A stretch of 64,000 nucleotides of DNA from Escherichia phage KBNP1711, in sequence record NC_023593.1, one strand, 5' to 3'. Position 1 is the stretch's first letter. Every line of letters starts with the position of its first letter. Shown one piece after another: positions 1-2,321 of this stretch. The translations under genes and the position numbers were made by a program. The notes below the pieces were generated by a model that saw nothing but the letters and a program-made list of their open reading frames with translations, ran no database searches and had not been told where the DNA came from.

Positions 1-478
1 CGCACTGCGTGCAACGCTGAAAAAGAAAGAACATAAAGAAAGTATTAAAAGAATAATAATAACATCAATTATCAATACCAATCTAATTAATACATACATC
101 ATTAATCCACCCATAATCGTTACACTAATCATTATTTACACTCAAACCATGGGGGATGCGATTGTTTCAATCCTACACTATTCTACCTGCAATAATGTGC
201 CCTTTACTTGTTTGTTATCAGGGCTGGCCTCTCATACCCTCCCAATTAATGAATGAAATAAACGGGGTGAAAGTAATGGGTACTATATTACACGGGGTAG
301 CGATTGCACGGGATAGGACACGGGGGAGGGTTAGGGCATTCAGGCACGTTCACGGGGAAGACGAACGCCAGTGAGATAACCCTTTTTTTAATGAGGACTC
401 CCCCTTTTTAGGAAACGCGCGCGAGGCACCTAGGCACACTCGGTCAAATCAGAATTTTAAACTGTTATATATAAGCAT

Positions 479-685
479 ATGCCCCAACTTTATGTTGTGG
501 ATTTAAGGTTGAGAGAGGGATTAATGAATCTAATTAAAGTGTTTAGACGGATGAAATGTAAGCATGATTATTATCTTCTTCGTAAAGCTTACGGGGATGA
601 AAGAATACACGGGCTATACTTATCAACATGGAAGTGTAAGGAATGTGGTAAGTTAAAGTTTAGTGAATGGGTGGACAGACCGTAA
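479..685 (+). CDS. hypothetical small Cys-rich protein (possible zinc ribbon)
   Basis: ORF track; CxH...CxxC spacing; no family recognised. Confidence 0.3.
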   Translation: MPQLYVVDLRLREGLMNLIKVFRRMKCKHDYYLLRKAYGDERIHGLYLSTWKCKECGKLKFSEWVDRP

Positions 686-912
686 TGGAATGGATATTCT
701 GGTTAGTAATAATCTTCTCTTTATTCATCTGCTTCTCTATAGCAAGGTGTATCAAATATGACTAAGCCTTAACATGACATGGCCTTTATGTGAGGTCCCC
801 TTTATATCAGAGGGATGTTTATGAGGTAGTCATCAGGGATGACGTAGCCTTTACGGGGTGGCCTTAATATGAGTACCCCTTTATGTCTTCCCTTTTTCAG
901 AGGAGAATTAAT

Positions 913-1170
913 ATGTATTTTATCTTAGACTTTTTATCAGAGGTGATTCCTCGGTTTCGCACTGAAAGGTGTGCATTCACATTTGAAGACATGGGTGACG
1001 GGGAGTTAATCCTCACCTGTATTGGTCGCTTAGTAGACTTAGACGATGACGAAGACTTTGATGCCACAATGGACGTAAGCGCCTTGGGTTGGCTTTACAT
1101 GAGAGCTTTCCTGTCATTCAAAACAAACACATTTACTGATTATAGAAAAGAGGACACTGATAATGAATAA
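913..1170 (+). CDS. hypothetical protein
   Basis: Track ORF 883..1170; AGGAG 7 nt upstream of ATG at 913 suggests the shorter start. Confidence 0.4.
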   Translation: MYFILDFLSEVIPRFRTERCAFTFEDMGDGELILTCIGRLVDLDDDEDFDATMDVSALGWLYMRAFLSFKTNTFTDYRKEDTDNE

Positions 1171-1681
1171 CACAACAATCATCGCAGCACAGGCTATGGA
1201 CTTAAACGATTATAACTCTGCCCTGTGTGGCTCAGGCACTTCAACTAAACTTATTAACGGACGGTTAGAACTGGTGAATGGTCTTTGTGTCCCTGATATC
1301 CATAGTGGTTCTATCCTTAAGCCAGAACATAAGAATCCTTCTACGTTAGAAGTTATTCAGTATGAATCTACCAAGCATAACCATTTGCCGGAACATGCAC
1401 GACAGATGATCGAATGGATAGAAGAAGCAGAATATGAAATGTTGTATAACTATATGAACTCAAAAGATGAGTGGACTCGATTGGTAAGCATTAACGAAGA
1501 TGGCACAGAAAAGATTACGTGGATTCATAAAGACGAAGTGGTTAACGACGTGGTAGAAGATTACGAAAAATTTTTGGTCGGAGGGTTGGCTGAAGTTGAG
1601 AAGGGGTATGCAGTTCCTGTAGAATACGAAGGTGAGCTTGTTGCTCTGAAGAAGATGTTTAACCTGAGCATCGATTGCTAA
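1163..1681 (+). CDS. hypothetical protein
   Basis: ORF track; GAGGA RBS; followed by terminator hairpin. Confidence 0.45.
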   Translation: MNNTTIIAAQAMDLNDYNSALCGSGTSTKLINGRLELVNGLCVPDIHSGSILKPEHKNPSTLEVIQYESTKHNHLPEHARQMIEWIEEAEYEMLYNYMNSKDEWTRLVSINEDGTEKITWIHKDEVVNDVVEDYEKFLVGGLAEVEKGYAVPVEYEGELVALKKMFNLSIDC

Positions 1682-1690
1682 TTTTGGTGT

Positions 1691-1716
1691 GCCTCTCGTA
1701 GTGGGAGGCTTTTTGT
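1691..1716 (+). terminator. rho-independent terminator-like hairpin
   Basis: 'gcctctc gtagt gggaggc' stem-loop followed by TTTTT. Confidence 0.5.
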
Positions 1717-1745
1717 TATAGTGGTAATGTAAGAAGGAGAGAAAC

Positions 1746-2216
1746 ATGTTTGGTGAAAAAGGAGAACTCACGCCTCTACAGGTAGCTGAGATTACAGGAA
1801 GATTACCCGGAGTAACGGAAGAACTTGAATCCAAGGGTATGAACCCAAGCAATGGGAAGTTTCAAAAAGGAAATAAGTTTGGTAGACCAAAAGGTAGTAG
1901 AGGTAAGCTTACTCAGCTTATGTTAGACCGAGTAGCTTCTAGTCATTTGTCTCCTGATGAAGTGTTAATTCAAATTTACGAAGACCCTAATATTCCGCCT
2001 GATCTTAGATTCAAGGCTGCATCAAAAGTCGCAGATCTAGTTTACCCTAAGGCAGCTTCTGTTGAAATTAAGATGGAGGATGAGAATGCAATTAATGAGG
2101 AAACGTTGAATGCACAAATCAAGGATTTCTTGACCGGAGCTTTAGGTATTGATGTTATGCCTCCAGAAGACTCTGAGGACGCTGAAAAGGAGGAGGAAGC
2201 GGACGAGAGTAAATAA
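1746..2216 (+). CDS. putative terminase small subunit
   Basis: AAGGAGA RBS; position immediately upstream of large terminase; acidic C-terminus; no diagnostic motif. Confidence 0.35.
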   Translation: MFGEKGELTPLQVAEITGRLPGVTEELESKGMNPSNGKFQKGNKFGRPKGSRGKLTQLMLDRVASSHLSPDEVLIQIYEDPNIPPDLRFKAASKVADLVYPKAASVEIKMEDENAINEETLNAQIKDFLTGALGIDVMPPEDSEDAEKEEEADESK

Positions 2217-2321
2217 AGGAAACGGGGAGCTGTCGAAGATTCTTTTACAGTGTACCTCAGTATAGAGGGGAGGGTTCTTTTCGCGAGGGATCTCTCCCTT
2301 TTTTTAATTTTTGGAGGAAGT

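Follow-up and report, generated by a model that had tools for sequence, protein, structure and literature searches.

Organization of the terminal region

The stretch analysed here consists of 64,000 nucleotides of Escherichia phage KBNP1711 (NC_023593.1) and is referred to as the window over its whole length. Its first 4 kb match the phiEco32-like podoviruses (Gordonclarkvirinae). The closest relative of this part is Escherichia phage EP335 (96.5% identity), and ECBP2, 4E8 and about 90 others come next at 81–85% identity. The window starts where the ECBP2 record starts, and the physical genome end lies elsewhere. The 4E8 record begins at window position 226, and its annotation places a direct terminal repeat (DTR) of 206 bp at position 1 of that record. 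The left ends of phiEco32 and SU10 also align at window position 226. The DTR of phiEco32 is 193 bp long (PMC9965538). The interior of the DTR contains five ACGGGR repeats (262–357) and a conserved core, GAGGACTCCCCCTTTTTAGGAAAC (about 388–415), which is conserved out to Vibrio and Aeromonas phages. The features of the region are listed in Table 1.

Table 1. Positions of the repeat units and neighbouring features in the window
Feature	Position	Strand	Sequence or remark
Right end of unique region	1–225		
Solitary unit	198–211	+	TGCCCTTTACTTGT; matrix score 15.1, one of the seven highest in the window
DTR	about 226–431	.	placed by homology
AT-rich promoter-like stretch	about 445–505		conserved
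Gene 1	524–685		small Cys/His protein, Zn-ribbon-like; phrog_7696
26-aa hydrophobic ORF	685–765		stop codon abuts unit 1
Repeat array	766–905	+	between early gene 1 and gene 4
Unit 1	766–780	+	GCCTTAACATGACAT; matrix score 14.1
Unit 2	781–796	+	GGCCTTTATGTGAGGT; matrix score 19.9, highest of the whole window
Unit 3	797–813	+	CCCCTTTATATCAGAGG; ends the left sub-array; fused to CTTTATATCAGAGG motif
Spacer separating the sub-arrays	814–845	+	includes degenerate unit GTTTATGAGGTAG
Three-codon remnant ORF in spacer	821–829		ATG AGG TAG
Small palindrome in spacer	829–843		GTCATC-AGG-GATGAC
Unit 4	846–859	+	AGCCTTTACGGGGT; matrix score 15.2
Unit 5	860–875	+	GGCCTTAATATGAGTA; matrix score 17.5
Unit 6	876–889	+	CCCCTTTATGTCTT; matrix score 14.7
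Degenerate unit 7 with gene 4 Shine-Dalgarno	890–912	+	CCCTTTTTCAGAGGAG (890–905); ATG at 913
Gene 4 homologue	913–1170	+	85 aa; first gene 3' of the array; phrog_12698 (no function assigned)
Gene 5	1163–1681		
Strong terminator	1691–1709		
Copy of known phage-sigma promoter motif	1725–1733		TAATGTAAG; late promoter P6
Gene 6	1746–2216	+	putative small terminase subunit; large terminase gene directly 3'

The array starts 335 bp beyond the DTR edge, and the order in the window is DTR, array, genes 4 and 5, gp6, large terminase (TerL) and portal. An earlier note on this DNA placed the repeats upstream of the first structural genes. This placement is imprecise, because genes 4 and 5 come next and the packaging and structural module begins with gene 6 (1746), about 850 bp beyond. 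Genes 4 and 5 belong to the early class in phiEco32 and SU10 (PMC4281155). Family searches with gp1, gp4 and gp5 give no informative matches, and a search of IMG/VR for gp4 relatives gives no confirmed match; further loci were taken from GenBank phage records and metagenome contigs.

Repeat units and their clustering

The stretch 766–905 contains a unit with the core (G/C)CCTT(T/A)A(T/C)(G/A) in six strong copies and one or two degenerate ones, all on the + strand and arranged in two sub-arrays. The CCTTWA sequences on this strand start at 767, 783, 799, 848, 862 and 878, with spacings of 16, 16, 49, 14 and 16 bp. The five copies quoted in the earlier note are all present. Four of them lie exactly where that note put them, and the fifth, cccctttatgtc, is located at 876–887 rather than at 877–888. 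A full copy at 766–780 and a degenerate copy at 890–905 had been overlooked. The CTTTATATCAGAGG motif that follows unit 3 is the ribosome-binding site of the small inserted gene 2/3 in phiEco32, 1-6af and KarlSchell. Unit 4 carries an ACGGGG motif that is also repeated within the terminal repeat.

CCTTWA is found 69 times on both strands of the whole window, as compared to 71 expected, and six of these 69 cluster on one strand in 117 bp. When the sequence of 766–898 is shuffled 20,000 times with its dinucleotides preserved, the maximum is three copies, which is reached in four shuffles, as compared to the six copies observed. In a broader test, any 5-mer occurring at least five times is found in 51 of 5000 shuffles. 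A position weight matrix was derived from other genomes only (20 genomes, 52 distinct units; the window left out), and its seven best matches over 128 kb of strand were those at 783, 862, 848, 799, 201, 878 and 767, in this order. Strong matches are thus essentially confined to the terminal region, where they comprise the six sites of the array and the site at 201. Tandem Repeats Finder reports nothing in 1–2500, because the spacers outside the core are too divergent. The clustering of the units is not due to chance.

Conservation among genus-level relatives

The array was compared among 21 genomes, which are the window and 20 further genomes. It is found in all 21, between gene 1 and gene 4 and on the + strand, with 4–9 copies. 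The unit spacing is 13–16 bp in every genome (n=21), often with an alternation of 16 and 14. The units of these Kuravirus genomes follow the register (A/G)TGA-NN-T-SS-CCTT(T/A)A and are arranged head to tail, as in ATGACATGGCCTTTA and ATGAGGTGGCCTTTA. Among 86 distinct units from the 21 genomes, the information content is 1.1–2.0 bits at CCTTWA, 0.5–0.8 bits at the positions adjoining it and less than 0.5 bits in the spacers, and the 5–7 bases separating the cores are freely variable. A conserved core with free spacers is a signature that suggests a recognition site rather than a recent duplication. The CCTTTAT sequence of the last full unit and the segment TCAGAGGAGA, from the stretch with the Shine-Dalgarno sequence of gene 4 (890–912), are invariant in 15 genomes. 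The orthologue of unit 1 overlaps the stop codon of gene 1 in most relatives.

The earlier note had named two outcomes that would speak against its proposal, namely that the repeat is not conserved in related genomes and that it scores no better than shuffled AT-rich sequence. Neither is observed, since the repeat is present in 21 of 21 genomes and its six copies exceed the maximum of three in the shuffles. The description of the sequence as AT-rich is itself wrong. The G+C content of the array is 46%, whereas that of the flanks is 31–40%, and the array is the most GC-rich segment outside the DTR locally.

The array is split into a left and a right block in all genomes compared. The gap between the blocks is either a 38–58-bp spacer or one or two small genes. 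Small genes fill it in phiEco32 (genes 2/3), 1-6af and KarlSchell, and the gap of the window retains just a three-codon remnant. In three genomes an extra small ORF, with CTTATTCAGAGGA repeats on its flanks, separates the array from gene 4. Because small genes come and go here, the region is a hotspot of gene gain and loss, in which the unit cores persist.

This hotspot allows the repeats to be explained as neutral scars, in which a ribosome-binding-site cassette has been duplicated or illegitimately recombined and has no function of its own. Sub-arrays A (764–813) and B (844–905) align as duplicates, each ending in a ribosome-binding site. Genes 2/3, the 26-aa membrane ORF and a 36-aa ORF are gained or lost at unit or cassette boundaries, the insertions are bordered by CTTATTCAGAGGA repeats, and the copy number ranges from 4 to 9. 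However, the 8–10-bp core is invariant while the spacers diverge, which is not expected of neutral scars, the spacing of 13–16 bp is held in 21 genomes, and the units are recognisable across families in which the small terminase (TerS) is only 42–54% identical. A purely neutral origin is therefore very unlikely.

Units at the terminal repeat and in distant relatives

The solitary unit is located about 15–25 bp 5' of the DTR start, which is the right-end side in a concatemer. The related sequences GTGCCTTAA and GCCTTTAC are found at the matching place in eight other genomes. Unit-like sequences are also present within the repeat itself, since the DTR begins with AGCCTTTC in most genomes and its conserved core contains CCCCCTTTTTAGG.

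A tblastn search with gp6 identifies relatives with 42–54% identity in Grimontviridae and allied phages. These are Cronobacter phage GAP52, a Salmonella 7-11-like phage, Proteus phage P59, Aeromonas phage BUCT695, Pantoea phage TacPo2 and Vibrio phage SJSY21. All six have a non-coding or sparsely annotated stretch of ~0.9–2 kb 5' of the TerS gene, and the DTR-core sequence (..CCCACTTCCCCCTTTT..GCTAGC..TACCAC..) is present in each of them. A related unit, ATGA-NN-T-SS-C(A/C)T, is found between the DTR core and the TerS gene, for example as ATGACCTCCCATCTA, ATGACATGGCATCAA, ATGAGGTGGCATCAA and ATGGTAGGGCAT. The direct repeats of these phages lie 95–420 bp past the DTR core and 60–420 bp before the TerS gene. 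They are ATGACCTCGCATCAA, ATGACCTCCCATCTA and ATGACACCGCATCTA in GAP52, ATGAGGTGGCATCAA, ATGACATGGCATCAA, ATGACCTCCCATCTA and ATGACATCCCATCAA in P59, three copies of AATATGACCTCTCATCAA in BUCT695, ATGGGATGGCATG, ATGACATGGCATG and ATGGACTGGCATG in TacPo2, and AATGGTAGGGCATGA, with a 14-bp period in part, in SJSY21. The 11-mer TATGAGGTGGC is common to the units of P59 and Kuravirus. Units are also located 5' of the DTR core, at 201 in the window, at 1660 and 1834 in P59 and at 80 in BUCT695.

Metagenomic contigs with an intermediate gp6/TerS (61–74% identity) bridge the motifs, from GCCTTWA through GCCATTYA to CGCATGAA. Contigs L029 and L032 have GCCTTWA units at 16-bp spacing, soon after the DTR core and directly 5' of the TerS start. 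The units of L033 are GCCATTCA and GCCATTTA, and L030 has only one unit, GTGACCTCGCATGAA. The units of these two contigs adjoin the TerS start and lie 835–1100 bp from the DTR core. The likeness of the units across families rests on about 12 semi-conserved positions, and the strict pattern shared across families matches just one unit in the window. Judging from the sequences, the units of Kuravirus and of the distant relatives are probably homologous.

Coding and promoter tests

A coding repeat is ruled out, because the array region contains stop codons in all six frames and the indels between genomes are not multiples of three. Look-alikes of CRP, IHF, sigma-54 and CsrA sites, noticed by eye, were dropped, because the bases that match are not the conserved ones.

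The earlier note listed a repressor, terminase and RNA polymerase as possible binders of the array, besides a packaging- or origin-proximal element. The units could be weak or degenerate tandem gp36 promoters, or activator sites for the first rightward late promoter. Some units elsewhere read CCTTAATGTGA, with an AATG core (phiEco32 441 and 625, WFI101126, SU7 and Ptacy1532), and CT-rich blocks precede three genuine TAATGTATA sites in the window. The units of the 7-11-like phages and GAP52 are located immediately 5' of matches to the late-promoter consensus GTAAtg-16-aCTA, which has been shown experimentally for phage 7-11 (PMC8948821). However, TAATGTATA is not found in 766–898 at up to one mismatch, whereas genuine copies of the motif are located at 1725, 9279, 21063 and 26300 in the window, among other positions. 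The gp36 promoter is tAATGTAtA, of which −14A, −13A, −12T and −11G are contacted and required (PMC12276001). The units of the window read TTATGTG, TAATATG and TAACATG, and each lacks the required −14A or −11G. One orthologous unit alternates between AATG and AACA among genomes (CCTTAATGTGA and CCTTAACATGA), which indicates that these bases are not under promoter-type constraint.

The location of the array does not favor a promoter either. The mapped phiEco32 promoters are located only before genes 6, 13, 26, 40, 58 and 68 (PMC4331800, PMC8948821). Genes 4 and 5, which follow the array, are of the early class, and the Kuravirus late promoter P6 is about 850 bp away, beyond the terminator. A sigma-70 scan of 1–2400 gives no site in 766–912. 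Upon manual inspection, 20 bp separate the TGACA and TAAYAT pieces found in units 1 and 3, whereas sigma-70 needs 16–18 bp. In addition, the unit is common to phage groups with unrelated sigma factors, and it is therefore unlikely to be read by the sigma factor. Recognition by RNA polymerase is thus disfavoured, and a promoter-related role of either kind is improbable.

Possible RNA leader

The array may instead function as RNA. The CCUUU(A) cores would then be anti-Shine-Dalgarno mimics or sites for an RNA-binding protein and would tune the first downstream gene in its translation or stability, and they would lie in an early transcript that runs from a post-DTR promoter through gene 1 to genes 4 and 5. 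Every unit has the sense orientation of rightward transcripts, which an RNA element would need. The ribosome-binding site that ends each sub-array is CAGAGGG-ATG or CAGAGGAG-ATG. The array always precedes the next gene, whether this is an inserted ORF, gene 2 or gene 4. The promoter motif TAATGTAAA just 5' of the units in L029 would place these units in the leader of the TerS mRNA.

The folding results are as follows. The + strand folds somewhat better than its shuffles (z = −1.9; 6/200), whereas the − strand does not (z = 0.15). The consensus fold of 15 genomes keeps only a pairing between CCUUU of the last unit and AGAGG of the Shine-Dalgarno sequence. Its five pairs, which amount to −2 kcal/mol, are invariant in 15 of 15 genomes and show no covariation. 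Because all five are invariant, the fold neither supports nor opposes an RNA structure. The hairpins of the ccc...ggg type proposed in the earlier note do exist in the window, at 781–797 and 798–814, with six pairs each including three G-C and two G-U, but they are not kept in relatives with different spacers. An intrinsic terminator or attenuator was rejected, since these hairpins are weak and their 3' arms are not conserved in relatives. Rfam 15 gives no family for this region, and the best match, L31 leader at 773–796, scores 18 bits against a gathering score of 33 (E = 0.68).

Two further results argue against an RNA leader. The Grimontviridae units (CATCWA) are unable to pair with a Shine-Dalgarno sequence, and the units located 5' of the DTR core are outside the expected rightward transcription. 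An RNA leader is unlikely on this evidence, but it is the main rival to a DNA-binding role. The sense-strand orientation and the ribosome-binding site that closes each block speak in its favor.

Possible origin iterons

The units may also be iterons, which a phage replication initiator or primase-helicase would bind near the genome end. They are oriented direct repeats in a non-coding stretch near this end, several repeat families crowd the long non-coding termini of the distant relatives, and GAP52 has three perfect DnaA boxes (TTATCCACA) about 600–750 bp 5' of its DTR core. On the other hand, the 14–16-bp spacing differs from the typical one of roughly two helical turns, and the locally GC-rich array is not adjoined by an AT-rich unwinding region. 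A search for the DnaA box at up to one mismatch finds none in or beside the array of the window, the sole near-match being at 620, inside gene 1. No initiator gene lies alongside, the families of gp1, gp4 and gp5 being uninformative. An origin at this site is highly doubtful. Because of the evidence against each, the promoter, iteron and scar explanations are less likely than an RNA leader.

Possible role in genome-end recognition

The array is real, non-coding, oriented, regularly spaced and variable in copy number, with a conserved core and spacers that are not conserved, and it is syntenic with the terminal repeat and the terminase region across two phage families. This supports the suggestion of the earlier note that binding sites are arrayed near the genome end, as far as the conserved core, the variable spacers, the single orientation, the spacing of 14–16 bp, the distance of 335 bp from the DTR and the presence in two families are concerned. 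The explanation that we favor, with a probability of roughly 0.35, is that the array is bound as DNA by a conserved phage protein with a role at the genome end or in packaging. From the arrangement of the sequence we infer that the array would act as DNA rather than RNA, that TerS would be the binder and that packaging would be the process.

In the mechanism that we propose, an oligomeric protein conserved in the phiEco32/7-11 supergroup would bind the row of sites on double-stranded DNA. This protein, most likely gp6 (TerS), would read the array together with the unit-like sequences at the DTR edges. The contact between gp6 and the array would lead to recognition of the phage concatemer, and gp6 on the array would anchor the packaging motor near the genome end, in the fashion of the R sites of cosB or of pacL/pacR of SPP1. 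The anatomy of the array, with one orientation, a short fixed period, a variable copy number and two blocks, fits sites that are bound by an oligomer.

Several results point to recognition of DNA at the genome end, namely the near-absence of the unit elsewhere in the genome, the site at 201 and the unit-like start of the DTR. The units located 5' of the DTR core, where a rightward transcript is not expected, likewise point to recognition at the DNA level. The order of DTR core, units and TerS gene in the distant relatives, like that of DTR, array and terminase genes in the window, is the placement expected of a terminase site. The sigma factors and promoter motifs are unrelated between the phiEco32 and 7-11 groups (PMC8948821), and a cis element common to both groups is thus a more probable target of a core protein that they share. 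TerS is 42–54% identical across these phages.

The small terminase candidate gp6 is the most likely binder, as far as can be judged from sequence. It is reported to have profile similarity to TerS of PaP3 (PMC9965538). A sequence search of the PDB with gp6 gives nothing, and its AlphaFold model (pLDDT 69, pTM 0.36) has no significant Foldseek match. With this model, the small terminases of PaP3 and NV1 are found at E = 1.7–5.6. The product of gene 1 is unlikely to be the binder, since most of the distant relatives with the units lack an annotated ORF in the interval from the DTR core to TerS.

The probability given to the packaging explanation reflects the position of the array, at 335 bp from the DTR edge and some 850 bp from gene 6 in this genus, the units of L030 and L033, which adjoin the TerS start and not the DTR core, and the weak fold matches of gp6. 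In addition, the units track a rightward gene start at least as well as a genome end, and this fits a role in gene expression equally. It may further be proposed that the unit ATGA-NN-T-SS-C(C/A)T(T/C)WA is a packaging-recognition element of the whole supergroup of C3 podoviruses with elongated heads (Gordonclarkvirinae and Grimontviridae), that an oligomeric TerS reads a one-orientation array of variable copy number located past the terminal repeat, and that the motif drifts with TerS. This broader proposal is more speculative than the packaging explanation itself.

The array is a genuine and conserved cis-element of an ordinary type that resembles binding sites, and it has apparently been undescribed so far. 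A description of it was not found in the accessible literature on phiEco32, SU10, YF01 and 7-11, the primary phiEco32 reports aside. Podoviruses with terminal repeats cut concatemers at precise sites. For most of these phages, including the therapeutically used phiEco32/SU10 group, we know of no DNA signal to which guidance of the terminase has been assigned. The array is conserved, easily mutated and located in a region of natural gene gain and loss, and it thus offers an experimental handle. As a recombination hotspot that tolerates insertions, the region is useful for engineering payloads into these phages. Should the array instead serve as an RNA leader or as a sigma-factor decoy, a new layer would be added to a well-studied transcription programme. 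If the unit is read by TerS, it would represent a defined pac- or cosB-like site for phages with a short DTR and a working model for the SRL/SRR repeats of T7. The array would gain in interest if it turned out to be the packaging signal of the supergroup and to serve as a model for the repeats of T7.

Comparison with known systems

The gp36 middle and late promoters (tAATGTAtA) occur in the same phage group as the array, and TAATGTG is found in some units of some genomes. The units of the window, in contrast, do not have AATG, and the conserved CCTT is not part of the promoter motif. In the centromere-like parC site of plasmid R1, a core is flanked by two blocks, each with five 11-bp repeats. 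This site and the iterons of plasmids and phages resemble the array in having two blocks of direct repeats in one orientation with a spacer of about 40–50 bp, but the phage is virulent, a partition or initiator gene is not located nearby, and the period and the context are different.

In lambda, cosB (R3-I1-R2-R1) contains the sites for gpNu1, with three R sites in mixed orientation and an IHF site within about 170 bp of cosN. Lambda cosB and SPP1 pacL/pacR are similar to the array in that several sites of ~16 bp are located between the DNA end or cut site and the small-terminase gene. In these systems the sites are read by an oligomeric TerS that anchors the motor, whereas binding of TerS to the array is a proposal. 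The array differs from cosB in that its units, 4–9 across genomes, are in the same orientation and are located 335–480 bp from the repeat edge, and lambda is a cos phage, whereas the phages compared here have a DTR. The distances of 335 bp to the DTR and about 850 bp to gene 6, with a promoter-like region and genes between, are far for a cosB-type site.

The closest parallel is provided by the SRL/SRR arrays of CCTAAAG that flank the terminal repeat of T7, which were reportedly described together with the T7 sequence by Dunn and Studier in 1983. We know of no function that has been established for these arrays, and a literature search on SRL/SRR function yielded nothing usable. In the T7 sequence, CCTAAAG is found 12 times with a 13-bp period at 175–338, right after the 160-bp repeat, and 3–4 more copies are present in the interior of the repeat. 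T7 differs from the phage analysed here in gene content, which is unrelated, and in the core of the repeats, which is CCTAAAG instead of CCTTWA. The T7 array directly abuts the terminal repeat and precedes the early promoters, whereas a promoter-like region and gene 1 intervene here. Each side of the repeat carries a full array in T7, whereas the right-end side has one copy (201) here. The two phages are alike in being podoviruses with a short direct terminal repeat. Both have a core of 6–7 bp in one orientation at a fixed period, which is 13 bp in T7 and 14–16 bp here, and in both the repeats lie just inside the left end. Further copies are located within the terminal repeat in T7, whereas here one unit precedes it and unit-like sequences are present within it. 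When a T7-type array is defined by a short core that occurs at least six times in one orientation at a fixed period of 11–17 bp, the array of the window, with 6–7 copies, is of this type. By this analogy, the Kuravirus array appears to be the same kind of object as the T7 repeats, displaced inward.

Repeat families of the terminal region

The motif ACGGGR is a second repeat family common to the direct terminal repeat (DTR) and the array of CCTTWA-core units. Five plus-strand copies, mostly (C)ACGGGG, are packed into a 96-bp stretch inside the DTR, and further copies are located downstream of it (Table). One of these further copies, at 853, falls in unit 4 of the array (CCTTTACGGGG), and GTACACGGGTTG is present in the array spacer of relatives.

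Other repeats are found in the distant relatives. A conserved family with the sequence (G)TGAATA-NN-TATGCA is located upstream of the DTR core, and the Kuravirus DTR has a possible counterpart of it, in phiEco32 ATGAATAGGATGG. In Cronobacter phage GAP52, a non-coding stretch of 170 bp holds three perfect DnaA boxes (TTATCCACA) and several near-copies; this cluster precedes the DTR core by about 600-750 bp. The window has no equivalent of this cluster. The entire terminal region of the supergroup seems to be made up of several repeat families.

Coordinates of repeats, palindromes, genes and hairpins in the window and in compared loci (L-numbers; L022, GAP52; L024, Proteus phage P59; L029, metagenomic contig)
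Feature	Sequence	Position
ACGGGR, DTR copies	window	262-357
ACGGGR, further copies	window	591, 853, 998
DnaA boxes, perfect	L022	464-472, 556-564, 623-631
(G)TGAATA-NN-TATGCA	L022	997-1147
(G)TGAATA-NN-TATGCA	L024	1710-1807
(G)TGAATA-NN-TATGCA	L027	1460-1695
(G)TGAATA-NN-TATGCA	L025	205-248
CTTT(W)TATCAGAGG	window	800-813, 893-905, 930-943
TTTTATCAGAG	L024	2142, 2461
GTCATC-AGG-GATGAC	window	829-843
Palindrome in relatives	L006	about 1028-1042
Palindrome in relatives	L010, L011, L014, L020, L002, L008	
26-aa ORF	window	685-765
ATG AGG TAG	window	821-829
Coding call over array (phi32_3)	L004	565-744
Coding call over array	L001	587-679
Coding call over array	L016	589-801
Coding call over array	L017	770-916
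CCTTTA units in called ORF	L029	2144-2270
Terminator and TAATGTAAG	window	1691-1733
Second terminator-like hairpin	window	2285-2300

Ribosome-binding sites and palindromes in the array

The CTTT(W)TATCAGAGG motif occurs three times in the window. Two copies close the two sub-arrays, one each, and serve as ribosome-binding site, while the third lies within gene 4, 17 nt in. In the 7-11-like phages and GAP52, the units are followed by T-rich versions of this motif that end in CAGTG, and Proteus phage P59, a distant relative, has TTTTATCAGAG again in its non-coding region.

The array also contains perfect small palindromes in which arms of 5-6 bp enclose a centre of 3 nt. These palindromes differ in position from genome to genome and come and go in the manner of small insertions. 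The 3' arm of the window's palindrome, GATGAC, is at once the 5' half of the following array unit. The centre of this palindrome is AAA, TTT or AGA in relatives, and CACTAC-TTC-GTAGTG, GCTAC-TAC-GTAGC and GTAGT-GAA-ACTAC occur elsewhere.

Small genes and ORF calls at the array

The array region is a hotspot where tiny genes are gained and lost. An ORF for a hydrophobic 26-aa peptide (MEWIFWLVIIFSLFICFSIARCIKYD) separates gene 1 from the array in the window and is inserted there in about half of the relatives, and phiEco32 genes 2/3 are reduced in the window to ATG AGG TAG. Several GenBank records have protein-coding genes annotated over the array; neither the frame nor the extent of these ORFs is conserved between genomes, and they are probably spurious. 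In L029, a metagenomic relative whose TerS is 72% identical, the called ORF of the gp5-like protein contains three to four CCTTTA units (GTGCCCTTTATGCCTTCGCCTTTAGTTGATAAGCCCTTTATTCAGAG). Either these units can be coding in this relative or the ORF has been called too long.

Physical left end, terminators and late promoter

The window starts 225 bp ahead of the physical left end, as does the ECBP2 record. Positions 1-225 belong to the unique sequence, at its right end, and relative to virion DNA the deposited genome is therefore circularly permuted.

A second terminator-like hairpin separates gene 6 from the large terminase gene. The strong terminator consists of GCCTCTCGTAGTGGGAGGC and a T-run, and is directly followed on its 3' side by TAATGTAAG, the window's counterpart of the phiEco32 late promoter ahead of gene 6.
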